IMG/VR virus record: IMGVR_UViG_3300042691_005779
From: a virus
Taxonomy: Duplodnaviria; Heunggongvirae; Uroviricota; Caudoviricetes
Length of the DNA stretch: 64,000 nucleotides
Direction: 5' to 3' (one strand)
Shown piece by piece: positions 977-62,186 of the stretch. The translations under genes were made by a program, and so were the position numbers. How positions within the stretch are numbered: position 1 is the stretch's first letter; each line of letters starts with the position of its first letter. The notes beneath the pieces were generated by a model. It saw nothing but the letters and a program-made list of their open reading frames with translations. It did no database searches and was not told where the DNA came from.

Positions 977-1050
977 TATACGCAAAAATAGTTTAAATTA
1001 GTTTATTTTCAATGAGTTAGATAAAACTATGCTACATAATATAGCATTAT

Positions 1051-14300: not shown

Positions 14301-17300
14301 GTAGGGTTGTCTAATGTTTTACCATCTACACCCACCACTTTAATCTTGCTACCAACTTGCTCAACCATTACCACAGCAATAGTTTTGCTAGGATCCACAT
14401 CACTAGTTCCTTTGATGTGATTCATCAATCCTTTTAGTCCTAGTTGTTCTTCATTTTTAGCTGTTACATATACACCACGTATTTGTTTTCTATTAGAAAA
14501 CTTATACATGTCAGCTCCAAACTTTATAGAGTTTTGATACCCAGGAAGTTGAGGAGTAGATATAGTGGCTCTAGGAATAATTAACTTGGTCTTTTTATTA
14601 ACCTGCTCATACTCAGCAGCTTTGGCACCAGTTTGTTCGCCTGGTACTTCTGTATTCTGACTATTTAGAATTTCTTCATTTCCCTTCTTAATCTTTTCAT
14701 CCTTAGCCTTATTCTTAAAATAGTTGGTAGCTGCCTTATTATATTCTGCAAAGATAGCATTAATTAACTCAGGGTTGTCTAATGAGTTAACAAACTCTAA
14801 AGCACTTTGATCTTCAGGCTTTTGAACATCTTTGAACTCAGCCTTCTTTAACACAGTGGCAATAGCCTTATCCATGATGTAATTAACATCCTCATTTGAA
14901 ACTAACTGGTCACTTATTTTAAACTGTCTGAACTGTTCAGGAGTAAGGAAAGTTACACTACCATCAGGAAGTTGAACTTCTAGTTCTCCTCCTAAGGTTT
15001 GTGATAGTACGCTTATCTTTGGCTGAACTATTAGTTTACCATTCTGTACCAATACTGGTTCTTCAAGAGTATACTCTTTACCAATCTCTAACTTCTTCTC
15101 AACAATTTTCTCTTTCCCTTTCTTCTTTGTTGGGGCAACTCTCTGTTCAACAGTAACTGGAACTTCTTCCTCTGCACCAAACTCTTCTTCCATTTCCTCA
15201 TATCCTTTAGGATCTTGCTTGATAGCATCATACTCTTGGATATATTTTCTTCTGTTTAATGAAAGGTCAATAACATCAGCTAGTGCAGTTTTAAGATCTT
15301 CTTTAACATCAGATATAACATCCATGCTATTGATTTGATCTAGTACAGTTTGTGTAGCTTGTTTGTTAGGCTCATTACCTGAAATAATACTTTGTAAGAT
15401 TTCAGCAGTATTGATACCAGCTACATTTAAAATAGAATTCACTTGTGGAATACGCACATCATAGTTACCCACCTTGGCTGTGGCATATACAAGTTTGTCT
15501 ATCACCTTATCACTATATAACTTGTTACCTTCTCTATCAGCAATGTTAGAATATCTTTCTCTAACCATAGAATAGGTATCTTCTACCTGCTTGGCTAGAG
15601 CTGATAAGTTGTCAAGTCTTTGAACAAATTGTTCTTTAGTTTCATTAGCATTAACTATACCATCAGCTACTAATTCCTCAAAGCCTACGTTATCCATAGC
15701 TTGAGATTTGTAGTAGGATAGTTCTTGGTTAACAGCATCTATCTTACCATACTTTACTCTAGGCATTAAATAAGATAGAGTGAAGTCATGCTCCATGTCT
15801 TTCTCAGTGAGTTTATCATTAGCTATGATAGCTGCTTGTCTTGCTTTCTGAGAACCAATACCAATACCAACATAGTTAGCTAGGTCTTTTAGAACAGCTG
15901 CAGAGTTTGTTTTATTCAATGCCTGTATTGCTACATCTGTATTTCTACCTCTTTCACCACCATATCCTAAAAATCCTCTTTCTCCTAATTCACCAGATTT
16001 ACCAAACCCTACTCTTGTTCTTCCTTGCTCATCTTGGTATGTGCCTACATATCCAGCTTGTTGTAATCCACCAGACAACGCACCTATGAGGATGTTTTGC
16101 ATACCCTCTTTGGTATTCAATGTTTCATCTATACCATATTCAACTATGTTTCCCATTACACTGTTTGTGTTATTTAGGAAACTAGAAACATCTTTTTTAT
16201 TTCTATATGCTCTATTGAAATAATCATTAACACCAGTTTGAATAGCAAACTGTGCACCTTCTTCAAAACCTTCTGAAGGAGATACAATAAGTCCACCAAT
16301 GTTTCTGATGCCACTACCTATTTTACCAAGTCTTGTCTTTGGTAAGTATTTAGACCATTCTCCACCAACTACTGATTGCTCAATGTCATTGATCAATGCA
16401 GCATCTGCTTTCTTAGAAGAACCCAAAATCTTTGGAAGTTGAATGTAGTTTGTTGCTGTGAGTAGCAATGAGTTCATTCCCCATGTAAAGTTACCTATCT
16501 TATCTGCATAAGCGTTGATAGCATCTAGATCTTTACCTGTAGGAGTTTCACCATACTTATCTCTATATTCTTCGATAGCATTGTTTCTAAAGGTGTTCAT
16601 GTTCTGAAGACCTTCTAATCCTGCTTCACCAAATGTACCTGTGGCAGATGTAATAATTCTGTCTGAGTTTCTCAATACAGAAGCTGCTGGTGACTTTAAA
16701 TACTTCTGTGCTACAGAGTTAAGTGCACCATCAAACGCAGCAAACTTTTGTAACCTAGGAGCTGCAGCCATAGATTCTTCTACAGCTGTTAGTGCTTCCA
16801 GACCTTGACCTGCTTTGACTAACTTACTAGTTACACCCAATGCCTTTAGGGCTTTGCTCCACGCAAAACCACCTCCTATTGTACCTAATGAATACCCTAA
16901 GTTTTTAAGGATACCATCAGAAAAGAAGTTAGCTGTCAATAAATAATCAGGGGAATACCAGTTAGCATCAGTTTGCTTCTGGGTCATATAGTTAGGAAGT
17001 ATATCTTCTAATGCCTTGTATGAATCATCTAACTTCCTATTAATCTCATTATCAAACAATGAAGAGAATCTACCATCACGTACCATAGCACCTAAGCCAT
17101 AGACAGTACCAGCTGTACCAGAGATAAAACTATTGGTAGCTGTGCCTACAAACTTTAAGGCACCATTTCTCCACTGCTCTAGTGCACTCTGTTGTTGTGC
17201 ATACTTTTCTTCTAGATCAGTTTCATATGGTCTACTGCTTTTATATCTATTGCCAATATATATTGAAGAAACAGGAAGTTGAGGAACTTTAGTTTTTCCT

Positions 17301-17494
17301 GGATCAGTATTGTTCCATATATCTTGAGGAGACATATCACCTCCAACAACACCCACCTTGCTATCAGTTCTAGAGAAATCAAGACTGATATCTGGAAAAT
17401 TTGACTGACCACCCAAGTTAACAACTTTTGGTTCAGTGGTAGGCTGCGTAGCATTAACACCTTCTCCTAAATTAATTATTTTTTCTTCTGGCAT
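5327..17494 (-). CDS. Giant virion-packaged RNA polymerase-like protein (4055 aa), crAss-like vRNAP type multidomain protein
   Basis: A 12.2-kb uninterrupted ORF. DxDxD-type motif KKAGSDFDIDKLSVY at nt about 8150-8164, as in the double-psi-beta-barrel virion RNAP of crAss-like phages. A low-complexity PTPAAAPVAQPTPAPVATVAPVEEV linker separates an N-terminal block of about 1450 aa. Confidence 0.65.
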   Translation of the reverse strand: MPEEKIINLGEGVNATQPTTEPKVVNLGGQSNFPDISLDFSRTDSKVGVVGGDMSPQDIWNNTDPGKTKVPQLPVSSIYIGNRYKSSRPYETDLEEKYAQQQSALEQWRNGALKFVGTATNSFISGTAGTVYGLGAMVRDGRFSSLFDNEINRKLDDSYKALEDILPNYMTQKQTDANWYSPDYLLTANFFSDGILKNLGYSLGTIGGGFAWSKALKALGVTSKLVKAGQGLEALTAVEESMAAAPRLQKFAAFDGALNSVAQKYLKSPAASVLRNSDRIITSATGTFGEAGLEGLQNMNTFRNNAIEEYRDKYGETPTGKDLDAINAYADKIGNFTWGMNSLLLTATNYIQLPKILGSSKKADAALINDIEQSVVGGEWSKYLPKTRLGKIGSGIRNIGGLIVSPSEGFEEGAQFAIQTGVNDYFNRAYRNKKDVSSFLNNTNSVMGNIVEYGIDETLNTKEGMQNILIGALSGGLQQAGYVGTYQDEQGRTRVGFGKSGELGERGFLGYGGERGRNTDVAIQALNKTNSAAVLKDLANYVGIGIGSQKARQAAIIANDKLTEKDMEHDFTLSYLMPRVKYGKIDAVNQELSYYKSQAMDNVGFEELVADGIVNANETKEQFVQRLDNLSALAKQVEDTYSMVRERYSNIADREGNKLYSDKVIDKLVYATAKVGNYDVRIPQVNSILNVAGINTAEILQSIISGNEPNKQATQTVLDQINSMDVISDVKEDLKTALADVIDLSLNRRKYIQEYDAIKQDPKGYEEMEEEFGAEEEVPVTVEQRVAPTKKKGKEKIVEKKLEIGKEYTLEEPVLVQNGKLIVQPKISVLSQTLGGELEVQLPDGSVTFLTPEQFRQFKISDQLVSNEDVNYIMDKAIATVLKKAEFKDVQKPEDQSALEFVNSLDNPELINAIFAEYNKAATNYFKNKAKDEKIKKGNEEILNSQNTEVPGEQTGAKAAEYEQVNKKTKLIIPRATISTPQLPGYQNSIKFGADMYKFSNRKQIRGVYVTAKNEEQLGLKGLMNHIKGTSDVDPSKTIAVVMVEQVGSKIKVVGVDGKTLDNPTFDTAVFQVMPDPKFQWSEKFGGKSMFPQDTTEAEKNAIIKEYTEFANETLDSTDLNTFQIEASFGVPQTVLDAQGNPVKNVRTGAVAAGLIQESDLATKPVIYIPTLNNVAQRGSTSYANALGKIFLIAGNGYVPLQNKLHSEKEAEVIYQAISRLATIRFEVGDFNSAEAKRLGADRLFDWLRTVTYWGSPKNAASPNSVWFNADGPLELKLNISNDGTSYPFTPLSIEANKDAIVEKLQTMYNNVRSAYVSSELSNWNNSYEQILSVGADGKITTKKWKNYQSYLLSTSGRTGQETPLTVPYKEATPTTTNREGIYFVNTDTKEKYAGVINKATVAKKNIVIPVAPSPTAGFVMDGKTPNTIKNAQYGDIVFTVNGEELTTSGGKSGVALVQDASGKLVSQPAIEKLAAEKSLPIDKATSLLANSIYNKLTTPAAAPVAQPTPAPVATVAPVEEVATESDEAEITPSDEDLIRQQMNEMGDDAPFRVKVQQDTDKFEKEDWPKIEEFMKNNFPMIPLYRVKNIIRGLGGIEAWGMLRNGGIYVYENAEVGTAYHEVFEAVWKLFSSPEEKINITNEFRNRAGSFVDRVTGETIKYSEATDFQLKEQLAEEFRDFVQYGKVPMKPAKGQPFIVKLFNDLVNFIKSFFVGPQAARNTEELFKRMTTGFYSKQFPARQQLSYAKAGIINISDAFADRESETRIKGFAGQEVNDIMQQMTYEVLRRVVRPGGNIFNITNNTVSNEELKDALQKTALKSRKAAEKLIEKARKVSEQEGKAAEERYASIIDKSNSLWSRITNNWDALTEKHKEYLLSYNIEFDENNEAVVLEDKGKDETYSSAEKIDNFRKANSAIKLLLSTIPIVRNGDLVYTSINGAKLIPTSEVYMTIINRTYAATNPDEMLEALRQLAIDDENYRTLYERITRKPYDDGDPSYENLGEDHQLRLVNALWRLFNKQNPTVKNLYILDNGDVQVGDSNFTTAARQLADEFKNGIVSSVKNDTKYFEYSGLRKGYAPKINNQGKAVIGDFPTATLEEQVKFLNKLGIPFNIADVDQLDVDDKTRFTNATLGIKKSFTDLEVVSTLTGRTLSINGRLLELATIQAKIKNPEFDSVFYNVNGDATQTFIGVNALSNLHSALSKLSNISELANTPYAYLLTDTFAQNSVILNKMFDIAGNGDRIKDSENLMEPAWADGTINSTNAKKKQSSKLTYQERLIQEINMNLAGFYYNLVPGDSSLEHMVYMKNAVSKENVIEGYENGGINEIFKGYLISELNLAKEGRDVRNSKELRFFKAILGETLHNDIIEAEGTSEEVYAANEDRINAALAKYIADKTRQFKNTLYDYDIIKIDEEEPDVWTLTNLSMGKVMDDEDLMQHLEMLQINFMINNIELHKLLYSDPYQYKDELKRIKNFLSPRQSLAANSSELNAAMNNVYNKEFKEGEVGYIDFTRDYFRTVTMTDVLAVGDLPGYGKGGINKEEADSLTPIEQNFTDGQGGRKMQAKFAGKSTMDLILSGDRTRTTRANTDIQRMMQDYGLTNIEDLVGKTIRMTDKSGRVAYTRITNVVPFTKEYQDATWQKEGWEKSVTDRLVGQYPYAIEFELASEEEPFEETDGSGIISLPAHRNFRIRSGDWNSDEELQYRFDIRYEKAVKAGATPEQIKELLKSNPGVQSTYTPIKPIVSGNKGNGQLYNDIVLDKFALYPLSFRVLHEFNPDVNAIKLYNKMQREDIDYVVFKSGRKVGAQETFDPYDENDNFNEAPFTEKQLVNVPFSIMSTQSDVPSKEDGEVTRGSQITKLVTLDLMETGVPVDYKGGVEVWNRLSEDKKKEASPLYNEIKNNQYILEGMISLGFNNLLNSMGIKKVGEKFEVTDFSKAANTLRREILKREVNDNIADSLAGFLEGKVTLEATPAYQQIRNILYSIADREVISQKVNGGMKVQLPSTFMEENRVKKAGEKGYTSDVLKFYTNKEGQRVAEVMLSRWFDIDMSDQELLDYLNNTDEGQEILKGIGFRIPTQKQNSIDVIKVAKFLPKEFGDSVIIPSALVKKAGSDFDIDKLSVYLKNIYQDKNGDLRVIPYFGVGEKAIAKIKAMGLDMNTYELYKRSLENAYFKSLENLISSEENFEPLTTPNSADQLKKLSGEIVGKLGLAKIDYTDPGNMLDRRFMSRLRQAFISGKYAIGIAAVNQTNHSLNQRSNIFVDFDGMQDKLSDVDREWMGDGKIKFESYNTVEVNGKTYPSLSQVYNQGKQRISDILSQFIDGFVDIAKGPWIIELGMTPNVASTWMFLAKVGVPIKSIAYFMNQPIIRDYLRKIENSGYSWLFIDDFVKEIKADPKYAVGENYNFSKFTTIPNNTKLLETLGAKKLPNQDDRAQQQFMLDEFLKYAKMASQLFTVTQGSNFDTATFNDPYLVFKKQQQLIKAQKTIIASVDKNGNIIPGVDSILENSFLGVMANRLQDVRNAYAEILTSDNKNVRSVIEKVLLPYTDLPDGDFIKVAQKAVADLFDWAVQIDRKLNTQISEILLSDNNAARDINNFVVKVKNNKRHKLIDNQAIKLLEQLPSPTKGGVNNVKIKNKSNKVFDQNEIINGFRELKEYLGDDPLYGKIVRLAVLQSGLSKSPISYTSLLPYEDFEEVYNKTLSTLNKMPNLDDFYNLGVFQRNNWNNDDIVPYRKAKFKQNKNGDWFYANALNMKDQTIEDATNLGRIPQLMKLSSLARDANKDYIVYSWEIGSKEEKAEMRKRGDYSYIKKALFKKVYNGTSPLTTKNFYGTDVYTYKQINAWGDGIKANEFYNVVKTSVIPNGFEESREVEDADILEFFTYDEATGTDKETVTPPQTINESTNVIEGKISLPRRATKKTKFTIIRDNKEVEKEGYKLIIPEYPNANVYVSNEAIDQEGFIYKDDWRVEAGGLYITHIGSSTIDKAIAMFQQNVNNITNTEVLKKIQDVSNLFVGDPQETLTLQDGRAYTKLEIDGKLLKKLGYTPEEIGNILKEIC

Positions 17495-20344: not shown

Positions 20345-20420
20345 AATACAAAATTAATTTAAAATATTAGAATTACCAAGAGCTATAACAAATTTTAGTA
20401 ATTCACTATAACTGAATTAG

Positions 20421-32829: not shown

Positions 32830-33306
32830 TTATTTTTTCCATTCACAGTAGATATTCTGATACTTACTGTCAATGTTTATGTAATGGGATAGTAATCTAG
32901 ACGTTGCACGAGAGGGCTTGAAATACCACAGGTCTATGTTTCTGATTCTTGTAGATTCTTTGAACCACATCCAGCCAAAGAAAAATCCTTCTGTATGATA
33001 GTTGAAATTGTATATGCGTTTACCTTTCTCCTTGGTCTTTTTCCAATCTATGGGTAAGTTAACCACCTCTTTACCATCTACAGTTTTTAGCTTTCTTCTC
33101 TTCTTTTTATTAATGGAGAACTCTCCAAAGCCAAAAGGAAGTCTTGCTTTCTCTCCTGTTTCTAGAATGTAGTTTTTAAAATAGTCATTATATAGATATA
33201 TAATGTTTTTCCACTGGTCAAATGTAACCTTTACAGTGGGGTTTTTATTGCAAAAATTATTATAGTTTTCTTTACTAGAACTTCTCCAATCTATTTTTGT
33301 ACGCAT
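32830..33306 (-). CDS. Basic hypothetical protein, 158 aa
   Basis: ORF; Lys/Arg-rich (KKKRRKLK). Confidence 0.4.
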   Translation of the reverse strand: MRTKIDWRSSSKENYNNFCNKNPTVKVTFDQWKNIIYLYNDYFKNYILETGEKARLPFGFGEFSINKKKRRKLKTVDGKEVVNLPIDWKKTKEKGKRIYNFNYHTEGFFFGWMWFKESTRIRNIDLWYFKPSRATSRLLSHYINIDSKYQNIYCEWKK

Positions 33307-34037: not shown

Positions 34038-35287
34038 TATAAATATTGTTTGAATATATTTGTCATTCCTGAGCCTTGTTCTATTAAGAAGGCAGTCACT
34101 TCAGCCTTAGACATCACGTGACCATTCTTATCATCCCAAAGACTCTTAGCACTAGAGAATGCTGGAATTTGGTAAAATTTAATACCATTGAAATCTTGAC
34201 TAACTTCATGGTGTTTATCTCCTGTGAATATGTAGAAGTTGTCATGGAAAGACCACGCTTCTCTAAATTCTATTGGAAATAATGCTGCAAGCTTAGCTGG
34301 CTTTAAAGCATCTCCATGATTAAACATCAATGCTGAACCACCATAGCTTACATACTTTCTATACTTAGGACTCACATCAAATGTAAGTCTGTTTGTATTT
34401 CTAAAATAGGTTTGTAACCAAGTAACTAAATGCCATCCTACATACTCATCATGATTACCTGCTACATAGATTACATTTACATTATCAGCGTATTGTAATA
34501 ACATTGTAATCATTAACACCTCATGGTCACATATAAAGCTAAATGAATCTTGATATGTATGAGTGTTTGTTTGAGGAGTGCCTTTAGTTGTAGTTCCTGT
34601 AAACTCACTGTTGAATTCATCAGAACCAATAATATATGTAATTTGATCTAAGTTATTTGAAAGCTGTGCTTGATTAGCAATAAGCTCCACCTTGTACATG
34701 ATAGAAGCTAGTCTATCAGCAATGTTGTTATTGCCATCAATATCATATTTGTTCAAATGAGAGTCTTGCTTATTGATAACCAACATAGCAGGAAACTTAT
34801 GTTCAGAGAACTTAGGACTCATAACTTCCTGACTAACAGGTTGATATGATGCTAAAAAGTCTACAAAACTATCTTGAAAAACTTGTTCTGTAGACTTCTT
34901 ACCTAACCATGCTTTGACTTGCCAATGAGGACTGTTTCCATTCCCCCAGAAGTTCTGTACATATTTAGTTATTTCCCATTTATCTGTGTCTATGTGACAC
35001 TTCTCAATTAGTTCATCTAAGCTCTTAACCTCTTCGCTAAAATTAGCTACCACCTCTCCTGTACCCTTTATAAGATCTTCTGTAAACTTAACCACTCTAT
35101 CTTCTAAGTCTGCTATGTAGTTTCCTATCTCTGCTTCTTCTTGTGCGTTTTCTTCTTTTCTGATGTCTGCTAACAGACCATCTATCTCTGCCTCTGTAAT
35201 TCCTAGCTTATCAGCATAGTATTTTTTTGATTTCTTCCAATGCAGCATCTGTTGAAGTTGCTCCAAAAGACTTTGGTTTTCAGGCAT
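34037..35287 (-). CDS. Calcineurin-like metallophosphoesterase domain protein (416 aa)
   Basis: Ordered phosphoesterase motifs: QDSH (DxH), IIGSDEF (GD-like), VAGNHDEY (GNHD/E, nt 34442-34477), FNHGD, GDKHHE (GHxH-like). About 130-aa N-terminal extension. Confidence 0.6.
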   Translation of the reverse strand: MPENQSLLEQLQQMLHWKKSKKYYADKLGITEAEIDGLLADIRKEENAQEEAEIGNYIADLEDRVVKFTEDLIKGTGEVVANFSEEVKSLDELIEKCHIDTDKWEITKYVQNFWGNGNSPHWQVKAWLGKKSTEQVFQDSFVDFLASYQPVSQEVMSPKFSEHKFPAMLVINKQDSHLNKYDIDGNNNIADRLASIMYKVELIANQAQLSNNLDQITYIIGSDEFNSEFTGTTTKGTPQTNTHTYQDSFSFICDHEVLMITMLLQYADNVNVIYVAGNHDEYVGWHLVTWLQTYFRNTNRLTFDVSPKYRKYVSYGGSALMFNHGDALKPAKLAALFPIEFREAWSFHDNFYIFTGDKHHEVSQDFNGIKFYQIPAFSSAKSLWDDKNGHVMSKAEVTAFLIEQGSGMTNIFKQYL

Positions 35288-35394
35288 ATGTAGGTAAGTT
35301 TAGTTAAAATTAGCGTAAAGATAGGAACTATTTTTGATATACCCAAAAATTTACTAACTAATTTAATTATATAGAATAACTTTTTTTGTTAGAG

Positions 35395-39667: not shown

Positions 39668-40399
39668 TTACTCGTTTGTTTGTATTCTGTATATGGAGCT
39701 TTGAACAGCAGATTGGTTCTCTGTATACATTGCTAGGTTTTGTACTGTAAGGTCTAGTAACTCATCCTCAAGATAGGTTTCTAGTTCACAGTCAGAATTT
39801 ATAGAGTTTGTACCATCAAATCTCACGTATCCAACTTTATCTATATATTGTGGGTAACGCATGTATGAGATGTATATTTGCTTAGGTGTAAAAGTACCAT
39901 CTGTAAATATAGAAATCTCATCAGAGGATAAGGAATTGAACGTTTCTTGATATTCAAATGATGGTTTGTAATGAGTGTTGGTTAAGCAAAATTGTAAATC
40001 ACCATGCTTAGACAAGTCTCTATTAATCCATATCTTTCTATCTGTACATACACCTTTGTCTGCTAATACATAACTATCAATATAGAACATGTATTTAGGA
40101 GTGAGCAGATGAATGTCTGCAGACCATTGATTTAATTCAGCGTTCTTAATTGTTAAGTTAAGAGGTTGATGGTTATATACCATCACCAGACTTTGTAGGT
40201 CTTCATAGCGTTTTTTAAACGAGTCTAGACCTTGTCCTGATACAGTACTAAAACCATCAACCTTTTGCTTTATTAGCTTTATCTGAGCTTCATTTAACGC
40301 TAGAATTTTATCTTCTAGGTTAATTTGCTGATGTTCATTTGTTGATAGTTTATTTAGTTTCTGATCAATTTTGTATAATAAACTATCTACAGGGATCAT
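39668..40399 (-). CDS. Structural hypothetical protein, 243 aa
   Basis: ORF; 4-nt overlap with the upstream gene. Confidence 0.45.
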   Translation of the reverse strand: MIPVDSLLYKIDQKLNKLSTNEHQQINLEDKILALNEAQIKLIKQKVDGFSTVSGQGLDSFKKRYEDLQSLVMVYNHQPLNLTIKNAELNQWSADIHLLTPKYMFYIDSYVLADKGVCTDRKIWINRDLSKHGDLQFCLTNTHYKPSFEYQETFNSLSSDEISIFTDGTFTPKQIYISYMRYPQYIDKVGYVRFDGTNSINSDCELETYLEDELLDLTVQNLAMYTENQSAVQSSIYRIQTNE

Positions 40400-41361
40400 A
40401 ATGAAGCTATTTTTTTACCTTTTAATTTACCTTCTAAAGTCAATAATTGATCTTGGTTGTCATCATCTGCTAAGAACTTAACTAATTCATCTTCATCCTT
40501 AGCTATTTCAAACTCACCTTCGTAAACTTTACCATTAGGTCTCACTCTATAAATAGAATGTGCAATGGCTTGTTTAACTAAATCTTTAATATGGAGTAAG
40601 TTTTCCTTCATGTCTGCAAATCTGTTAAATACCTCAATTGGACTTAACCCTTGATATTTGCCATTCTTGAATTCTGTTTGTTTTAATAGGTTATCCACCT
40701 GATTGTATACAGCTTCTTCTTTAGAATCATCTGATACTGGGAGACCAAGTAGACGAGCTACTTTCTTCTTCTTTTCAGGAGTCATATCATCAAACTTGAT
40801 GATTGCTTTATTAATAAGTTGTTTCTTCTTGAAAATCACCTTATTCTCAATCTCATCATCAGCAACATAATATTGGATGTCTGCTGGATATTCACCACGC
40901 TCCCAAGCTTGATATGAGCTTGCAATTGTTGGATGAACTCTTAACCATGCGAACGCTAGTTCTTGTAATGGTACACTTAAGTCAAAGAAATTATCACCAT
41001 CTGATAACTTAACAGGTTGCACGTGCAGAGAGTCATCAACAGAAGTTGATAAGCCATAATTCCAGAACTGAGCACGAGGACTCAAGTCAACATTCAAAGC
41101 ATCTTCAAGCTTTTGTTTTAACTCAGTTACTCTTTCAACCTCCATCTCTCTTTCAAGAGGATCAGAGATTCTTCTGATGTAAGCAGCTTTAGGATCTAAT
41201 CCTGTTCTGTACTGACCATCTAACTCTTTGTAAGGATACTTAAATACACCTGTACCAGGGATTCTTGTATAACCTTTCATAGCAAGTCCACCTTGCATCG
41301 TTTGCAATTGTGAGTTGTTGTACTCTTTTTTAATAGTAGAGATTTTTCCTATCTTACCCAT
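40396..41361 (-). CDS. Structural hypothetical protein, 321 aa
   Basis: ORF downstream of the capsid gene. Confidence 0.45.
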   Translation of the reverse strand: MGKIGKISTIKKEYNNSQLQTMQGGLAMKGYTRIPGTGVFKYPYKELDGQYRTGLDPKAAYIRRISDPLEREMEVERVTELKQKLEDALNVDLSPRAQFWNYGLSTSVDDSLHVQPVKLSDGDNFFDLSVPLQELAFAWLRVHPTIASSYQAWERGEYPADIQYYVADDEIENKVIFKKKQLINKAIIKFDDMTPEKKKKVARLLGLPVSDDSKEEAVYNQVDNLLKQTEFKNGKYQGLSPIEVFNRFADMKENLLHIKDLVKQAIAHSIYRVRPNGKVYEGEFEIAKDEDELVKFLADDDNQDQLLTLEGKLKGKKIASL

Positions 41362-41458
41362 ATGTAGTTGTTTTTTTGTTTGGTTTATTTGCAGATGGTT
41401 CCCATCGAAGGGAATGCAGTTAACACTTAGTTAACCCATCCATCTGTGTGAGAAGACT

Positions 41459-41516: not shown

Positions 41517-43070
41517 TTAGAATTGTGGTATTTCTTCGATTAACACAGTACGTGATAAATCTTCAATGAATACATCACAACGATCTTTCATCCAGATCTC
41601 ATAACCAGGGAATTTGTTCGCAGAACTCATACCTTGAGACTTAGCAAAGCCTAAGTGGTGACGAGTACCATCGATATAACCCCAAGTCATAGAAGGTGCA
41701 CCTTTCATACGTACTTCACGAATGTTGTTCACCATAGAACCATCGCTCATAGGAGATACGTCAAATACCATGAATACAGGTGTAGACTTCTTGTTCTGTC
41801 CAAATTCTAGGTTTGTTTGAGGAAGGTCTAATTCTTTTAAGTGAATTAGTTCAACACGACCAGTTTCACGTGTAACCATTGCATCGAATGCAAAGTTGTA
41901 AGTGATGTGTTGACCTTCTCCTTGTAAATATCTGTTACCAGAATCAGCCATGAAAGTAAGACCAGAATTTAAAGCATCTGTTTTTAAAGCTTGTTGGAAT
42001 ACGTCAAAGCCAGCTTCATTAGTGTACATTTTAACACGTCTGTCTTTAACATCCACACGTCTGTAGAATAAGTCACCAAATACAGCACGAATCAAGTTAG
42101 CTGTGAACTCACCACGATTGTATTGTACTAAGTTACCATTGTTACGCATTCTGTGATATACACCAGCAGAAGTACGCTTTAATTCTTGCTTAGAACCATT
42201 AGTCTTCACAGTACCAGGACGAGCCCAGATCATACGCTTAACTTTTAATTCTAACATAGACTTACGCATCCAGAACTCAATAAATGGTTCCCATTTAACA
42301 TCATTACGAGTTAAAGGTAATTGGTTACGTCTTTGAGGAGCATATACTAAGATATCCAATGGATTACCTTTGCTATCTCTCATCATTTTGTCATCAGCCC
42401 ACTCTGTAATTTTGTGCTCATAACCATATGCAGAACCTAAAGATTCAAACATAGTAATTTGCTCACCTAAACGAGGAAGACCTAATAAGTCTTGGTCAAA
42501 TTCACCAATAGCAGCGTCAACTAGTTCTAGTTCAATACCAACTTGTAAGAAAGTTGAACTTACAAAATCTACAGTTGGGTTATCACTTACTAAAGTGAAA
42601 GTGTATAAGAAACCAACGTTCCAAGGAACTGGATCTTTTACAACGTAGAAACGTGGACCATATTGACGAGTACCTACAGAAATGATTGCGTTCTTAGAGA
42701 ACTCATTAGTGTCAATCACTAATTGGAATTCTTGACCATCAATACCAGGCTTAGATAATTCCTGAGTTGAAGTTGGAACGTCAATGATTTTAGGGAACTT
42801 GTAAGGAACTTGTACTTGCCACTTCCAAGCATCACTGTTGTTGTCAATGTAGTAAGGAGTAGACTTGTTGATCATGTCTAGGAAATCATTACTGTACAAA
42901 GAACTCTGAGTATACAAACTGATGATTTTTTTATCATAATCAGCAGGCTCAGTTGAGTGAAAGCTTTCCAAGTGGTTCGCATCAGTCAATTTACCTACTG
43001 CACGCTTGTCCATAGAAGCGATCCTAGCATAGGTAAAACCAGTTAAACCTGGGATTGTTTGAATTGCCAT
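41517..43070 (-). CDS. Major capsid protein candidate (517 aa)
   Basis: Size and position: immediately downstream of the acidic scaffold-like gene, in a portal-scaffold-capsid order. Followed by a GC hairpin. No motif-level proof. Confidence 0.5.
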   Translation of the reverse strand: MAIQTIPGLTGFTYARIASMDKRAVGKLTDANHLESFHSTEPADYDKKIISLYTQSSLYSNDFLDMINKSTPYYIDNNSDAWKWQVQVPYKFPKIIDVPTSTQELSKPGIDGQEFQLVIDTNEFSKNAIISVGTRQYGPRFYVVKDPVPWNVGFLYTFTLVSDNPTVDFVSSTFLQVGIELELVDAAIGEFDQDLLGLPRLGEQITMFESLGSAYGYEHKITEWADDKMMRDSKGNPLDILVYAPQRRNQLPLTRNDVKWEPFIEFWMRKSMLELKVKRMIWARPGTVKTNGSKQELKRTSAGVYHRMRNNGNLVQYNRGEFTANLIRAVFGDLFYRRVDVKDRRVKMYTNEAGFDVFQQALKTDALNSGLTFMADSGNRYLQGEGQHITYNFAFDAMVTRETGRVELIHLKELDLPQTNLEFGQNKKSTPVFMVFDVSPMSDGSMVNNIREVRMKGAPSMTWGYIDGTRHHLGFAKSQGMSSANKFPGYEIWMKDRCDVFIEDLSRTVLIEEIPQF

Positions 43071-43105: not shown

Positions 43106-44380
43106 TTATTGAAACCAAGAAGTTTGTTTAGTTGCTGGTTTAGATTTCACTGAACTCTTCTGGGCTTGTCTGGCAACCTCACCAAATAATTCATTTGACT
43201 TTTTGGTAATACCTGTCTTTTGAATAGTAGATAATGTAGGATCTTTCTCCATTATCTTCATGATCAACGCAAGCTTTACTTTTGTTGCATGATTCTCAGG
43301 ACGTTTAAGCTCCAGAATAGTCTTATCAAAGTCTGTGAGAGTCTCACCAGAACTTGTTTTGTACTTGTCTGTTACTAGGAAATCTTGTAGTTCACCAGCT
43401 AGTTTTGGATTAATTGGTATGCCATCAAATTCTTTAGCTTTGAGCTTCTCCTGTAAAACTTGGTTTACATTCTGATAGTACTGCTGTTTGATAGCCTGTT
43501 GCTGTTGTAATTGAGATTCTCTTTGTTGCTCCATTTGTTGGAGCTTAGCAGCTTCTTTCTTTACTAATACTTTATGGTGCTTGGTAGCAACGTTCTCAAG
43601 GTCACCATAGTTTTTAAGTCTTTCAACTTCTGTGTCTACATCTTCTTTCTCAAAGCCTTGATCTGTAAGTGCTTGTCTAATAACAGCAATTTGATTATTC
43701 TCTTGGCTAAGGTCCATCTCTGTGAAAGATTGGATCTGATTGTAGGCACCAAAGTATTCTTTAGGATCTACACCTTTTACAAATATGGCATCGAATGCTT
43801 GTTGATAATCTTCTCCAAACTGACCAATGAAGTTGTTTACAATTTCAATAGCTCCTTTCTTCTTCTCTGCTTGGAACTTTTCCAAGAAAGCTTCTGGGGT
43901 TTCTATTGGTGCATCTTCTTCCTCATCATCATCTTTAGAGAAAACACCTAGTTTGAAAAGGTCTCTTGATAAAGCAGTGAATTGGTTTGCACCTTCTTCT
44001 TCACCTTCTTCATCACTATCTTCTTGATTATCAGCATCTTGTGCAACAGTCTTTTTAGCTGGTGCTGGTGCTGGTTCATCATCTTCCTCACCCTCTTCTT
44101 CATCTTCTCCATATAAGAAACTTTGAATATCCTTTACAGGATTCTCATCTTTCTTATCTTCTTCTGGAGCAGGCTCTGAAGCAGCTGGTTGTTTAGAAGT
44201 AGTTTTCTTAACTGGAGTGGGAGCAGGATCATCTTTAATGTCCTGAATATCATCAGGATTAGATGTTGCACTGTCAGGGCTCAATAAGTCATTTAATAAC
44301 TCTTGACTTCCCATTCCCATGTCCATAGTATCTTGAATACTAAAGTTACCCATTTGGGGCATATCTAGATTTTCAGCCAT
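43106..44380 (-). CDS. Scaffolding-like protein (424 aa): acidic D/E-rich N-terminal half, coiled-coil C-terminal half
   Basis: Composition (EDEEEGEEDDE, DSDEEGEEEG) and location directly upstream of the capsid gene. Confidence 0.45.
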   Translation of the reverse strand: MAENLDMPQMGNFSIQDTMDMGMGSQELLNDLLSPDSATSNPDDIQDIKDDPAPTPVKKTTSKQPAASEPAPEEDKKDENPVKDIQSFLYGEDEEEGEEDDEPAPAPAKKTVAQDADNQEDSDEEGEEEGANQFTALSRDLFKLGVFSKDDDEEEDAPIETPEAFLEKFQAEKKKGAIEIVNNFIGQFGEDYQQAFDAIFVKGVDPKEYFGAYNQIQSFTEMDLSQENNQIAVIRQALTDQGFEKEDVDTEVERLKNYGDLENVATKHHKVLVKKEAAKLQQMEQQRESQLQQQQAIKQQYYQNVNQVLQEKLKAKEFDGIPINPKLAGELQDFLVTDKYKTSSGETLTDFDKTILELKRPENHATKVKLALIMKIMEKDPTLSTIQKTGITKKSNELFGEVARQAQKSSVKSKPATKQTSWFQ

Positions 44381-44500
44381 ATGTAGTTGTATTTATTTGG
44401 TTTTCAAGGTGTAAAAGTATATTAAGTTAATGTAATAGCAAAGACACAAGGCTCTATATGGACTATTATTCAGTATAATATAGCATTAACTTTTTTTACT

Positions 44501-45031
44501 CTAATCTAATTTGTTAGTGAAATTGTCATTTATCAGCCTAAAGCTCCTTATTGGGGCAAGATCTGTAAGTGTAACTTGTTGAACCTCAACACCCCACTTC
44601 CTTGCTTCCACCCTAACTTTCTTACTAAGAGTGTTGTCAAGCTCTGTATCTGTACACTCTTCTAGGGTCATAGACATGATGACGTTTTTAATTATGCTTT
44701 GAGACATGTCTGACAGAGCATCTTGGGCATCATACACTTCTAGCAGAAATGTCTTGACATCTGCTATCTTATATTTAATAAGCCCCTTCACCACAATATT
44801 CTGTTTGTCTTTTGTATACAAAGATTGTGCATCTAAGCTAAGGGTTGTCACAACGACATGTTGATCTATCACCTCGTCAAAGAAGGGAAGTTTTAAATGT
44901 ATCCCTGGTTTGAGCACTGAATGAAATCTACCAAACCTAAGCAACACAGCCTCTTCATAATCTCTGATTATAATAAAAGGTATTATCTGGTACCACCAGT
45001 GTGATAAGATTTCAATCAGTTTATCAAACAT
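44501..45031 (-). CDS. SPFH / band-7 (stomatin-QmcA-like) domain protein with an N-terminal membrane anchor (176 aa)
   Basis: AVLLRFGRFHSVLKPGIHLKLPFFDEV ... VVKGLIKYKIADV ... ARKWGVEVQQVTLTDLAP matches the SPFH core pattern (RFG.F...L.PG....PF.D.V ... WGV.V....I.DL.P). Hydrophobic N-terminus IIPFIII. Confidence 0.6.
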   Translation of the reverse strand: MFDKLIEILSHWWYQIIPFIIIRDYEEAVLLRFGRFHSVLKPGIHLKLPFFDEVIDQHVVVTTLSLDAQSLYTKDKQNIVVKGLIKYKIADVKTFLLEVYDAQDALSDMSQSIIKNVIMSMTLEECTDTELDNTLSKKVRVEARKWGVEVQQVTLTDLAPIRSFRLINDNFTNKLD

Positions 45032-50515: not shown

Positions 50516-50804
50516 AGACTTCTTTTTTAAGTGCCTCCTCTTCTTCCCTGTCAGACATTACAGCCTTCCATTTTTCAAGAGGACACTGGCAAGATAAGCA
50601 TTTTGTTTTAGCAGCTAACGTACAGCCACAGTCTGTGCAATGTACGTCAGGTCTGATGGTTTTATGTTTTGTAGATATCAAAGCACAGTCTTCACATATG
50701 GCCATTCTTTCCTCACTAACTTCCTTGATGTACTTTCTCATCTCCTTAGCAGGGAAAAGATTGTTCTTCCATCCCTCATATATTTGGGAAAAGCTAATCT
50801 TCAT
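50505..50804 (-). CDS. Zn-finger protein, 99 aa (CxxC x3)
   Basis: CEDCALIS ... CTDCGC ... CLSCQC. Confidence 0.45.
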   Translation of the reverse strand: MKISFSQIYEGWKNNLFPAKEMRKYIKEVSEERMAICEDCALISTKHKTIRPDVHCTDCGCTLAAKTKCLSCQCPLEKWKAVMSDREEEEALKKEVYGK

Positions 50805-51147
50805 GTGTAACTTTACTATTAAGCAGTTTAATTAATGCTTCTGTCTTTTCTAGTGTCACCTTAGATGCGTGCTTCTTTTGCTCTGTTGTATTTGGGTCAG
50901 CCAGGTAGCGTTCCATTGCTAGCTTTTTGCCAAGCAACGCTGCTATCTTCTTTTTGGCCTTCTTCTCATTGAAATAAAACTTCCCAAACCCAGAAATCTC
51001 AAGACTATTATGTAGGTCCATTGCCTCATTGGCAGATTGAAACTGATGATTTACAATGGTTTCAATCACCTTCTCAGAGACCATTATCTTCACTGCTAGG
51101 GTTCTGATAAGATAGTCTTTGACAGACATACTCACTGGCTTATCCAT
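50794..51147 (-). CDS. HU/IHF-family DNA-binding protein-like (117 aa)
   Basis: EKVIETIVNHQFQSANEAMDLHNSLEISGFGKFYFNEKKAKKK resembles the HU beta-arm region (GFG.F....R.AR). Confidence 0.5.
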   Translation of the reverse strand: MDKPVSMSVKDYLIRTLAVKIMVSEKVIETIVNHQFQSANEAMDLHNSLEISGFGKFYFNEKKAKKKIAALLGKKLAMERYLADPNTTEQKKHASKVTLEKTEALIKLLNSKVTHED

Positions 51148-51514
51148 GCAGCATACTTATTTGTAATATAATATCCTTGTCAAAGTTTAATAGTATGACA
51201 GGGTTCACCTTCACCTTTGTCCCATCCTTTACAAAAACCCCCATTTTCTTTAGCTTGGAAATGATGTTATTAATAGCTGGAGGTGTGCTGTCGTATTTGT
51301 CACAAAACTCCTTCCTTATATTAGCATAACTTATATTCCCCTTTATAGCTGTAAAAGCTATTAGCTGCACTTCCCTGTTTGTAAGCCTCAGATTGTTTAC
51401 AGCTGACAATAGCCTGTAATACTTCTCAGCTAGAGCATAGTTGTCTAACCCTGAAGTTTTCAGTCGCTGTACAATTGGTTGTGTTGGGTTGGTTTCCATA
51501 ATTAGTTGACACAC
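51140..51514 (-). CDS. HTH-like small protein, 124 aa (regulator or small-terminase candidate)
   Basis: ORF; LTNREVQLIAFTAIKGNISYANIRKEF helix-turn-helix-like segment. Confidence 0.35.
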   Translation of the reverse strand: MCQLIMETNPTQPIVQRLKTSGLDNYALAEKYYRLLSAVNNLRLTNREVQLIAFTAIKGNISYANIRKEFCDKYDSTPPAINNIISKLKKMGVFVKDGTKVKVNPVILLNFDKDIILQISMLHG

Positions 51515-51579
51515 AAAGGTATGTATATCTTTACGATCTACAAATAACTATTTTAGTTATAAGGAAAGTTAATGCTATA

Positions 51580-51828
51580 TTATGCATCAAATCTTCTGAA
51601 TACAGCTATAAAGCAAAACAAAAGGAGCCCTATTCTGAGCTCCTGTTCAAGACCACCTTCTGTAAGGGTGTAGTTTCTATTAGACACACCTAGCTCAAAG
51701 TTATTAAAGTCTGTAGGCATAAGTTCTACACCTATCTCCCATTCATCGAAATAGTAGAATCCCCATCCTATTACACCTATTATCATCAGCACCAGTGTAC
51801 CAACCAGTATTTGTACGACTATCATCAT
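51580..51828 (-). CDS. Small two-TM membrane protein (holin-like?), 82 aa from the first ATG; the track start at 51867 is a GTG
   Basis: The track ORF 51580..51867 starts on GTG. The ATG at 51828 gives MMIVVQILVGTLVLMIIGVIGWGFYYF ... LLLFCFIAVF. Its stop codon lies inside a copy of the recurring 15-nt motif. Confidence 0.3.
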   Translation of the reverse strand: MMIVVQILVGTLVLMIIGVIGWGFYYFDEWEIGVELMPTDFNNFELGVSNRNYTLTEGGLEQELRIGLLLFCFIAVFRRFDA

Positions 51829-51867
51829 ATCCAAGCTTCTTTGTCGAGGGAGGAGTTTATTCCCCAC

Positions 51868-52347
51868 CCTCCACCCTCAAAGGTAATGGTAATTAATATT
51901 ACCCACCAAATTTATTTTTATATGCCTACAAATATAATGTCCCTTATAAGGACCATATTATATGTATATGGGTATAATATGACACATTATGTAAAGCAAT
52001 AGCTTTACAATATGTAAAATAAGTAAAGCTATAGCTTGACACTTTTGGCAGAATATAGCTGTGTTATATCTTGCCAAATGTCTAGTTTATTTACTAAAAA
52101 ACTGGACAAATCAGGAAGTGAAACACAGCCAAATTAGGAAGTCTGCATGAATTTTTCCAAAATTTCATGCAATGTTCCATAATGGAACTATCCCCTGCTT
52201 TGGGCAACAAAATTTTCTAGCCCCCCTACCCCTTTTGTATGTATAGGAGGAGAGGGTACTTCCCATTGAAACCCCTCCTTGTTTTGATGAGGTTGGGATA
52301 CCCCTCCTCATTGCAATTAATCATTTCACAATTTAAAACGAAAAACA
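51868..52347. promoter_or_regulatory. Divergent control region between the minus-strand virion block and the plus-strand early block; dense in palindromes and iteron-like repeats (candidate promoters, operators or origin)
   Basis: GTAAAGCWATAGCTT direct repeats (51991-52008, 52023-52040); perfect palindromes AAGCTATAGCTT (52026-52037) and GTTCCATAATGGAAC (52174-52188); TGCATGAA-N12-TTCATGCA (52144-52171); ACCCCTCCT repeats (52271, 52300). Confidence 0.55.
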
Positions 52348-52782
52348 ATGGCATTTAAATTAGAAGCCTACGTAAGACAAAACTCAACAGTAGTAGATGA
52401 AAACCAAACTCCACTTGATGTGGCAGGTCCTAATGGCAGTCTCTCATTGAGCAAAAAGAACATCCTTGACATCAACAAGCAAGTTGCTTTGGAAATTGCT
52501 GATGGCACAACTGATGCTAATGGCAATCCTCACAAAAAATGGCTTGCTTGCTCTGTACCATTGAGTAAAGAGATTAGAAGAAAGTTTAAAGCAGGTGCTT
52601 CAATGCAACAAATCATTGACAGCATTGCTGCATTGAAGATTGTCTTCAAAACAGAGACACAACGTCATTGCTTATCATTGCCAGGCGAGAAGCAAATGTT
52701 CACAAGCCAAACAAAAGACATCAATGCTGTGGCTTTTGAAAGAAGCGAAGAGTTCTCACCAGAAGACCTTGTTCACCTGTAA
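52348..52782 (+). CDS. Early protein, 144 aa, function unknown; first gene of the plus block
   Basis: ORF with ATG start, followed by a strong terminator. Confidence 0.5.
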   Translation: MAFKLEAYVRQNSTVVDENQTPLDVAGPNGSLSLSKKNILDINKQVALEIADGTTDANGNPHKKWLACSVPLSKEIRRKFKAGASMQQIIDSIAALKIVFKTETQRHCLSLPGEKQMFTSQTKDINAVAFERSEEFSPEDLVHL

Positions 52783-52792
52783 GGGTGAATGT

Positions 52793-52832
52793 AACAAGAG
52801 AATAGGCTTAATTGCCTGTTCTCTTGTTTTCA
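52793..52832 (+). terminator. Rho-independent terminator (AACAAGAGAATAGGC-loop-GCCTGTTCTCTTGTT then TTTT)
   Basis: 15-bp stem with 1 mismatch; U-tract; 10 nt after the stop codon. Confidence 0.7.
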
Positions 52833-53303
52833 TATACATAGGGTGGGGCAAAATGATAATTGTTAGGGTTGGGCTCTGTTAAAAACATAACATAACACAT
52901 TGATTCTCAATATTTTATCTGTGAAAATGTGAGAAGGTGTGTGTTCAATTGACCCTTTCTTATACATTTTAACAACATTCAAAAACCAGCTATACATTAA
53001 CAATATATATAGCATTAAATAACAATATTATACATTATTAGATAACGATGCCTTAAAGTTTGACTATAAGCTATTATATGAGTTTTAGCCTTAGAAAGGT
53101 ATAGTCTTGGAACATTTGTTCTTGCATTGTTATCTATGTATGTATGTATATTATTAATATAATGTACCATTTCTATTTCCCAAGGATAGACAGATGTAAT
53201 GTACGTATTAAAACTAACGTCCTTTTGACCAGGTTGAAACAACCGTAGAATACATTACATCTGAGTACAGAGGGATTTTACACACATATTAAATAAAAAA
53301 CAC

Positions 53304-61458: not shown

Positions 61459-61597
61459 AGATTTAGTATATTTGCAAGAAGAAATAACTTTAATGCAACA
61501 ACAGGTTGATAAACAACCTGCTATAATACAAGTTATTGATAAGGACAAAATACTAAACAGAAGACATGAACATCAAGATGACGTTCTCCCATTTTGA
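61406..61597 (+). CDS. Possible overlapping small ORF, 63 aa, coiled-coil-like
   Basis: Overlaps neighbours on both sides; weak. Confidence 0.2.
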   Translation: MKDQSLKIIEDWERESLKDLVYLQEEITLMQQQVDKQPAIIQVIDKDKILNRRHEHQDDVLPF

Positions 61598-62186
61598 GGA
61601 GCTACTTAAGTCTGGGTATAGCCTAGACATGCTATTTTTCATTATGTTAGTTGAAGATGGATCAGACGTAGATAGTCTGTGTGAAGCACCAAAGTTAAAG
61701 ATGCTACACCAAACTGTACGCAGAAAAGGTCTATTGTCAGAAGCTAATAAAGTTACTATTCTTGGTAAGGAACTACTTGCTTTTCTAAATGAAGAGAAGG
61801 AAGTTAAAGTGCCTAAGAAGAAGAAAACAGATACTGACTTTGATAAGTGGTGGGGTTTGTATCCAGGTACAGACACCTTCACTTATAGAAGTCAATCATT
61901 TACAGGTACACGCAGCATGCGTACAAAGAAAGAAGAATGCAAGGTGAAATACAACAACATCCTTGCAGAAGGTGACTACACAGCCAAAGAGCTATTGGCA
62001 GCTTTGGAATATGAAATCTTACAGAAGAAAGAGAATTCAATCAAGACAAAAGTCAATAGACTTACATTTATGCAGAACAGTCTCACCTATCTCAATCAGA
62101 GGTCATTTGAACCATTCATTGAACTAGTAAGAGAAGGTAAGACTATTAAAGAGTCTGCTGAACCAATTAAAGGTATGGATATATGA
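61566..62186 (+). CDS. Replication-module protein, 206 aa, function unknown (possible initiator or primase partner)
   Basis: ORF in the tightly coupled operon upstream of the Zn-ribbon protein and helicase. Confidence 0.4.
   Translation: MNIKMTFSHFEELLKSGYSLDMLFFIMLVEDGSDVDSLCEAPKLKMLHQTVRRKGLLSEANKVTILGKELLAFLNEEKEVKVPKKKKTDTDFDKWWGLYPGTDTFTYRSQSFTGTRSMRTKKEECKVKYNNILAEGDYTAKELLAALEYEILQKKENSIKTKVNRLTFMQNSLTYLNQRSFEPFIELVREGKTIKESAEPIKGMDI

Follow-up and report, generated by a model that had tools for sequence, protein, structure and literature searches.

A conserved 15-nt intergenic element in helical phase with host-type promoters of a crAss-like phage: a candidate site for a phage-encoded regulatory or DNA-bending protein

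Promoters of the cultivable Cellulophaga phage phi14:2 have been mapped by primer extension and are made up of an A-tract, a −33 TTG and a −7 TAnnTTTGTA; they belong to the ordinary Bacteroidota type and are used by the host RNA polymerase (RNAP). Here we analyze a 15-nt element, TTAATGCTATATTAT, that stands beside promoters of the same type in a 64,000-nt stretch of IMG/VR record IMGVR_UViG_3300042691_005779 (the window), which is part of an uncultured crAss-like phage known from metagenomes only. In phage phi29, protein p4 binds upstream of the late promoter A3, with its site centred near −82, and activates the host RNAP; bound at sites close by, it also represses the early promoters A2b and A2c, which brings about the switch from early to late expression. 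The class I sites of CAP are found at −61.5, −71.5 and −82.5 and are 22-bp palindromes bound by a dimer. The MotA boxes of phage T4 lie at −30, where they replace the −35 element, 11–13 bp upstream of the −10 element. To our knowledge, promoters of the T7 class, the hairpin promoters of N4 and the promoters of P23-45 are always co-oriented with the genes that they drive and need no second promoter.

The window has the gene order of phi14:2. A leftward gene block extends from ~51.5 kb down to 1 kb and comprises, in this order, small genes, the terminase, portal, scaffold-like and capsid genes, genes for crAss tail-ring proteins, a phosphoesterase, a virion-RNAP-like protein and a 1424-aa protein, and the fibre gene, while a rightward block starting at ~53.3 kb includes a DnaB-like helicase. 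Judged by the capsid protein, the nearest isolates are a Leptolyngbya phage (26% identity) and Flavobacterium phages of the FpV4 type (22%), and a DNA search (megablast) of 13 kb of the window against a phage collection returned no match. Relatives are plentiful in IMG/VR and in metagenomes, with genomes of 105–117 kb. Scans of the whole window for tRNAs and for Rfam families were both empty.

An earlier note on the window had listed five copies of the element, three of them as exact 15-mers. Four copies are borne out, two of them exact, and we refer to them as A to D. Copy A (1036–1050, minus strand; ATAATGCTATATTAT), which had been counted as exact, carries one mismatch at the first base; it touches the TAA stop codon (1051–1053) of the gene for the 1424-aa protein, and the fibre gene (ATG at 903) lies downstream. 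Copy B (44475–44489, minus strand) is exact, lies 11 nt past the TAG stop codon of an SPFH-domain gene and is upstream of the scaffold-like and major capsid genes. Copy C (51569–51583, plus strand), also exact, is inverted with respect to the leftward operon that follows, and it overlaps the TAA stop codon of a minus-strand 82-aa open reading frame (ORF) at 51580–51828. Copy D (minus strand) exists close to where it had been reported, near 53010, but its coordinates, previously off by 1–2 nt, are 53004–53018; it reads TTAATGCTATATATA, and its first 12 nt are identical to those of the other copies. Contact with stop codons, which had been claimed for all copies, thus holds for A, B and C, whereas the ORF adjoining copy D (53015–53242) is probably no gene. 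The fifth proposed copy, at 35366–35379 on the minus strand (TTATTCTATATAAT), is not a member: it lacks the G of the invariant GC core, and in relatives the site reads TTAATCTATATAA, TTAATGTATATAA or unrelated sequence, so that it is not conserved as the motif.

Recurrence of the element exceeds chance, as had been proposed. The exact 15-mer occurs twice in the window against 0.00 expected occurrences, and the 10-mer AATGCTATAT four times against 0.41, a number reached in 1 of 100 shuffled sequences. All four copies are located within the ~3.5 kb of intergenic DNA that make up 5.5% of the window. When three mismatches to the 15-mer were allowed, the window yielded 12 matches, no enrichment over the 8.3 expected, and there is therefore no cloud of weak copies around the four. 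No further copy was found within the rightward block or in the 10 kb beyond that end of the window.

The element is conserved to a degree that its surroundings are not. The core TGCTATAT, the invariant intersection of all four contexts, is constant in about 140 related loci while the flanking spacers are scrambled. For copy B our table covers 60 of the 63 loci in IMG/VR with a gene for the scaffold-like protein (54–97% identity): TTAATGCTATATTA upstream of the scaffold-like gene was unchanged in 60/60, although the noncoding surroundings were unrecognisable in distant loci and the neighbouring protein was down to 54% identity, and it was likewise invariant in 78 unique sequences of the copy-B context. 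Copy A is kept as TGCTATATTATG upstream of the fibre genes of relatives L182, L184, L185, L189, L192, L193, L199 and L207, where the gap between TGCTATATTATG and TTG is 23 nt (24 in one relative). Copies C and D are kept at their positions in relatives, and the inverted motif of copy C was present in 80/80 metagenome loci that encode the winged-helix protein downstream of it. A scan of IMG/VR for the exact motif, from which no copies-per-genome figure is taken, gave among the matches listed both true relatives and chance hits inside genes of unrelated phages. The claim that the motif is a cis signal is supported by this invariance amid diverged surroundings and by the restriction of the copies to intergenic DNA; judged by its conservation, it is a genuine selected signal at transcription-unit boundaries.

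The earlier note had also stated that the motif does not resemble the Bacteroidota TAnnTTTG promoter element, and indeed it contains neither a TTG/−33 element nor a TAnnTTTG box. Complete promoters of this type are nevertheless its neighbours. Using the pattern TTG-N17–21-TAnnTTTn, we obtained co-oriented intergenic matches at 983–1012, 20349–20379, 35316–35346, 44412–44441, 51514–51543 and 51878–51909, all on the minus strand. Three of these stand beside copies A, B and C and are of the same type as those mapped in phi14:2: the fibre-gene promoter (983–1012; Bacteroidota σA type, TTG-N19-TATTTTTG), the promoter of the scaffold/capsid operon (44412–44442; TTTG-N19-TACTTTTA) and the promoter of the leftward, middle/late block (51514–51543; TTG-N19-TACCTTTG). 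The TTG follows 23 nt after copy A and 33 nt after copy B; that of the leftward promoter is 25 nt from copy C, which is inverted, on the opposite strand. The copy-B site is syntenic with the g092 promoter of phi14:2. In the gap that separates copy C from the −33 TTG there is a palindrome, ATAACTAttttAGTTAT (51548–51564), which stops 4 nt before the TTG. Many relatives share it, L034 in the form of a compensatory variant, ATAACTtaaatAGTTAT; it is probably a separate operator.

Distances were taken between the C in the TGC of the motif and the T that begins the −7 box. They are 54 nt for copy A (C at 1044, box at 990), 64 nt for copy B (44483 and 44419) and 54 nt for copy C (51575 and 51521). 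In relatives, forward copies were found at 53–54 nt (copy A; 8 unique relatives) and 64 nt (copy B; 71 unique sequences), and inverted copies at 52–55, 42–45 and 35 nt. In an independent set of 80 metagenome loci, fetched via the first protein of the leftward operon, the distance was 54/55 nt (42 unique sequences) or 44/45 nt (7 unique), with no other value. The end of copy B was 32 nt from TTTG in 78/78 unique sequences, which fall into 23 groups with <70% identical spacers, while the distance from the motif to the ATG varied from 91 to 111 nt in the same sequences. Because the former is constant while the latter varies, insertions and deletions are tolerated in the leader but not in the spacer.

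Copies A, B and C each lie upstream of a complete core promoter. With an assumed start ~6 nt past the box, their centres would be near −67, −77 and −67, respectively, within the range of about −55 to −95 of class I-like sites; with the distances used by relatives included, the site centres would be near −57, −67 and −77, on one face of the helix. The permitted positions differ by whole helical turns in both orientations. Phasing of 10 bp with no rule of orientation argues for a bound regulator or bending protein and against a promoter for a phage RNAP. As had been noted before, the orientation relative to flanking genes is mixed: A and B point the same way as their genes, but C and D oppose the adjoining blocks that they head and face antisense or non-coding DNA. 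Phased distances are seen in both orientations, and the dyad within the motif, TTAAT-GCTAT-ATTAT, is weak, becoming perfect (ATTAA) in L037, L039 and L049. On the phased spacing to a complete promoter, the apparent indifference to orientation and the invariant sequence, we rank first the reading that the motif, with its core TGCTATAT in TTAATGCTATATTAT, is bound by a regulatory or DNA-bending protein of the phage that acts at host σA promoters, a reading to which these sequence relations lend about an even chance.

A parallel element is present in phi14:2 (L064; NC_021806). In 100,000 bases of this genome (the last 418 of the record lie outside the scan), TAAACGCTATTAAAA occurs exactly twice, at 86799 and 89256 on the minus strand, each time overlapping a stop codon, and the −7 boxes of the promoters P092 (of g092) and P093 (of g093) each lie 67 nt from a copy. 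These promoters stand in front of genes that are called late in the phi14:2 paper; TAAACGCTATTAAAA is absent from the four mapped middle promoters. The repeat is an observation of this analysis and does not appear in that paper. The two phages agree in gene order, in promoter type and in having a 15-mer of their own at a fixed distance, with the g092 site syntenic with copy B, but the two 15-mers share only AAyGCTAT. A sequence of FpV4, GGCTATTACAC, 60 nt from the −7 box upstream of a g092-like gene, is a single case and was not used.

Among the systems outlined above, the arrangement resembles phi29 p4 in that centres near −57, −67 and −77 would serve three promoters while one more copy precedes an early-type block. 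It differs in that p4 sites are inverted repeats associated with bending and the promoters have the Firmicute σA −35/−10 elements, whereas here the site is largely asymmetric, the promoters are of the −33/−7 type and there is a candidate binder only. With CAP class I sites it shares permitted positions one helical turn apart and, apparently, the irrelevance of orientation, but within the motif any dyad is weak at best (TTAAT-N5-ATTAw), and the centre is invariant and asymmetric. Its sequence also recalls the MotA box, since TAATGCTATA matches (a/t)(a/t)(a/t)TGCTT(t/c)A at 8/9 positions, a resemblance that we keep as a lead only: the motif lies 23–33 nt upstream of an intact −33 TTG, 20–45 bp further upstream than a MotA box would be, and no conserved −10 element follows at 11–13 bp.

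The earlier note had instead suggested that the motif may be a phage-specific promoter, possibly one that serves the phage RNAP or a sigma-like phage factor. It could be an extended −10 element (TGcTATATT) used by the host RNAP through a phage or alternative σ factor, or a recognition sequence of the virion RNAP, for which the window encodes a 4055-aa candidate (5327–17494); in either case transcripts would begin a short way past it. The motif is indeed short, invariant, asymmetric and phage-specific and heads transcription units, as promoters of the T7 class, of N4 and of P23-45 do, and the phage encodes a giant virion-RNAP-like protein; a non-palindromic invariant 12–15-mer is what promoters of single-subunit and virion RNAPs look like. 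Promoters of the related two-barrel virion RNAP, that of P23-45, have a strongly conserved motif that is AT-rich, which also counts in favour of this proposal. TGCTATATT matches the extended −10 sequence TGnTATAAT at 8/9 positions in copies A, B and C, copies C and D have no phased host-type promoter in their own forward direction, and copy C stands back to back with the leftward promoter across the palindrome, like a divergent pair. Yet no single orientation serves all four copies. In the forward sense C and D would fire into antisense or non-coding DNA, and in the reverse sense A and B would fire against ~50 kb of leftward genes; the motif is not consistently co-oriented with genes and is locked spatially to host-type promoters. 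The rigid 10-bp-phased spacing to a second, complete promoter would be unexplained, and it fits a binding site upstream of that promoter. Moreover, the last T of an extended −10 element is invariant, but its equivalent, the −7T, varies among T, A and G in D-type copies (TATATA, TATATG, TATATT). We regard a promoter function of the motif as unlikely.

A narrower form of the same proposal takes the motif as ATAATATAGCATTAA, a promoter or recognition element of the crAss-like virion RNAP that would head both divergent blocks, at D and at C. In favour of a promoter in either form, the reverse complement of copy D lies 0–12 nt before the first rightward gene, and the rightward block of phi14:2 is early and transcribed by the virion RNAP. 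In crAss-like phages, a promoter of this RNAP family is not known so far; the phi14:2 study found no common motif upstream of early transcripts, which speaks against a promoter motif here, as does the lack of extra copies in the rightward block or the next 10 kb. If this form were true, copies A and B would launch early antisense transcription that restrains or primes the neighbouring host-type late promoters, but we hold it to be very improbable.

From copy C leftwards, the reverse complement of the motif is followed by the promoter and the left block; on its other side are the 82-aa ORF and the promoter of that ORF, both also directed leftwards. To the right, ~500 nt of non-coding DNA are followed by a ~140-aa ORF, a terminator, the reverse complement of copy D, a small ORF and the right block, all reading rightwards. 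In ~30 lineages the reverse complement of copy D stands 0–12 nt before the ATG of the first rightward ORF, or overlaps it. This small first rightward gene (53019–53300) is present in most relatives but degenerate in the window, where ATA replaces ATG and a stop codon comes early. A conserved host-type promoter was not found near copy D on either strand; only a TTGACA-N18-TACAAT look-alike occurs in some relatives.

Several sequence features accompany this region. The ORF at 51580–51828 (minus strand) encodes a conserved 80–83-aa predicted membrane protein (WGF..FEEWEIG..FELGVSNRNY) and has its own promoter at 51878–51909; it ends with a stop codon within copy C, and its coding end contains a terminator-like hairpin (51623–51644). 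A second terminator-like hairpin, read in the sequence at 52793–52828 (plus strand), follows the ~140-aa ORF. The non-coding centre between the divergent blocks (51830–52347, ~500 nt, with flanks 51857–51879 and 52840–52875) contains conserved palindromes (GTAAAGCnATAGCTTnAC twice and AAGCTATAGCTT at 52027), a hairpin formed by TTTTGGCA and TTGCCAAA, and a C-rich box complementary to G-rich boxes ~1 kb away; it has no Rfam match. It could be an origin or encode a non-coding RNA, and in phi14:2 abundant early non-coding RNAs come from long intergenic regions.

The exchange of genes next to the motif raises the alternative that it is a module-boundary or recombination sequence for the exchange of cassettes, namely fibre genes and the ORF between C and D, with no role in transcription. 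The C–D ORF (52348–52782, plus strand) belongs to at least two unrelated ~140-aa families among relatives. In a comparison of L001, L007, L015, L016, L028, L034, L042, L054 and L055, the sequence around copies C and D was nearly identical over short aligned stretches where the ORFs were unrelated, so that by these alignments the ORF is a swappable cassette in a mosaic region. The fibre genes downstream of copy A are also swapped among relatives, and assemblies break there. Copies C and D form an inverted pair 1426 nt apart, the 12-mer of D being a perfect inverted repeat with 51569–51580. No variable module is found beside copy B, however, and exchange would leave the phased spacing to promoters unexplained; such a role is the most improbable of those that we considered.

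If the motif is bound by a phage protein, the best candidate is most likely, from its sequence and predicted structure, a 119-aa winged-helix protein (51140–51499, minus strand) encoded by the first gene of the leftward operon after copy C. Its AF2 model (pLDDT 72.5) has the topology H-H-H-H-beta-beta and matches best the N-terminal domain of T4 MotA (1bja_A, E=6e-3; also 6k4y_M), followed by winged helices of MarR, Zur and NtcA; sequence matches to the MarR-like protein ST1710 are weak. In contrast to MotA, it lacks a counterpart of the DNA-binding C-terminal domain, and the fold E-value of 6e-3 is a weak one. A Pfam match of 51140–51514 to Sigma70_r1_1 (E=0.006, below the cut-off) was set aside, as the predicted fold is that of a winged helix instead. 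The predicted recognition helix INNIISKLKK and wing KVKVNP are nearly invariant across the clade, and the winged-helix gene, the inverted motif and the promoter occur together in 80/80 metagenome loci. A homologue was not detectable in phi14:2. The adjacent gene encodes a 117-aa HU/IHF-like protein (50794–51147, minus strand; PF00216, E=6.9e-8), which may be an alternative binder or bender; its start overlaps the end of the winged-helix gene, and it is present in all relatives examined. A bending protein would be especially well suited to an action that depends on phase but not on orientation. A second IHF-like gene (32830–33306) is homologous to g073 of phi14:2, annotated as ‘IHF subunit’ (31% identity, E=1e-14).

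The factor could also come from the host, for example host HU/IHF or a Bacteroidota global regulator whose site the phage exploits to tune its promoters. The evidence of phasing and orientation applies equally to a host protein, a conserved host factor would give invariance across many phage lineages, and, as is seen at IHF sites, copy B is immediately preceded by an A-tract, while copy C has a shorter A-rich stretch. However, comparison by eye of copies A–D in either orientation with the IHF consensus WATCAANNNNTTR showed no match, and the phage itself encodes three plausible DNA binders. A Fur-box match, also checked by eye, was rejected. Furthermore, phi14:2, which likewise infects a Flavobacteriia host, carries another 15-mer at the corresponding site, suggesting that the factor and the phage have evolved together. 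A host protein is accordingly a doubtful candidate, with a small chance of being the binder.

Alternatively, the motif could act as RNA or as a single strand, either as the 5′ arm of a hairpin involved in processing, stability or antitermination or as an N4-like hairpin promoter. At fibre genes its flanks pair (wwTGCTA with TAGCAww, loop TATTATG), with paired changes in L182 (TTATTGCTA/TAGCAATAA) and, with a G-U pair, in L192 (GAATGCTA/TGGCATTC); D-type copies contain GCTATA...TATAGC, and many B-type copies have ATATAG 19–25 nt downstream. By contrast, 23 diverged B-type sequences barely beat shuffled ones (mean z −0.84), with the core paired in 13/23 and no common structure, and a G-G mismatch breaks the stem in several fibre-gene copies. 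N4-type promoters have a stem of 5–7 bp and a 3-nt loop and serve early genes, whereas the loops here measure 7–20 nt, no structure is common to the B-type copies, and 3/4 copies precede structural or middle-type genes. A scan for intrinsic terminators found 51623–51644 (minus strand) and none at the motif, whose hairpins are AT-rich with T runs that are not conserved, and no Rfam family matches. In some lineages a strong terminator ends just before the motif, and the predicted start of the downstream transcript lies ~70 nt after it, so that the motif would be in neither RNA. An RNA or single-strand function is therefore very unlikely.

Several points weigh against a site for a phage-encoded regulatory or bending protein. 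Since no host-type promoter stands at a phased distance from copy D, a second mode of action had to be assumed for this copy. The start positions, and hence the centres near −57, −67 and −77, derive from the promoter consensus; the match between the distance classes of forward and inverted copies hinges on one fitted parameter, a site centre at motif position 7–8; and the truly independent spacing classes are few, about five. The most conserved part of the motif is the asymmetric GCTAT centre rather than the weak dyad TTAAT-N5-ATTAw, and an asymmetric conserved centre is unusual for the operator of a dimeric winged-helix protein. The motif holds a good extended −10 look-alike, TGcTATATT. As for the proposed binder, its fold matches are weak, none in the PDB reaching E ≤ 1e-3, and its co-occurrence with copy C could be plain synteny within one clade, in which the major capsid proteins are ≥90% identical.

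Other observations concern genes and short sequences elsewhere in the window. Between the portal and scaffold-like (43106–44380) genes, upstream of the major capsid gene (41517–43070), the SPFH/Band 7 domain protein (44501–45031, minus strand; Pfam E=7e-27) is kept in close relatives and absent from distant ones. A second short element, CTACATATG, occurs eight times in the window against 1.0 expected, among others at 35285–35293, 41359–41367 and 44378–44386 on the minus strand; a longer form, ACAACTACATATG, coincides with the start codons of two genes, the scaffold-like gene and 40396–41361, and CCTACATATG with that of the phosphoesterase gene. The element is conserved in all relatives and has the appearance of a translation-initiation context common to strongly expressed genes. 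Intergenic DNA is enriched in the hexamer GCTATA/TATAGC, with 10 of its 33 occurrences in 5.5% of the window, and one of them (20382–20387) is separated by 2 nt from the −33 TTG that follows it in the 20349–20379 promoter. A perfect extended −10 sequence, TGCTATAAT, at 61519–61527 (plus strand), in the intergenic gap upstream of 61566–62186, has the TGCTATA of the motif but not the remainder.

If a phage-encoded regulatory or bending protein binds the motif, at copies A, B and C it would contact or wrap RNAP and activate the fibre, scaffold/capsid and leftward-operon promoters. At copy D, before the first rightward gene (early by analogy with phi14:2), the same protein might act at an operator or as a roadblock, and activation at A–C together with a block at D would make an early-to-late switch. 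Were the winged-helix protein the binder, it would also regulate its own operon through copy C. Judged by its conservation, the motif is a real, strongly selected cis element; most likely it is a new instance of a familiar type of phage regulatory site.

The switch from early to middle and late transcription in crAss-like phages is largely unexplained, and the only promoters mapped in the group, those of phi14:2, are of the host type. Promoters of this type do not account for timing on their own. The phased invariant site, the parallel element of phi14:2 and the neighbouring winged-helix gene offer three handles on this temporal switch, and if the motif were a promoter after all, crAss-like phages would have in it their first candidate for a promoter class that is not of the host type.

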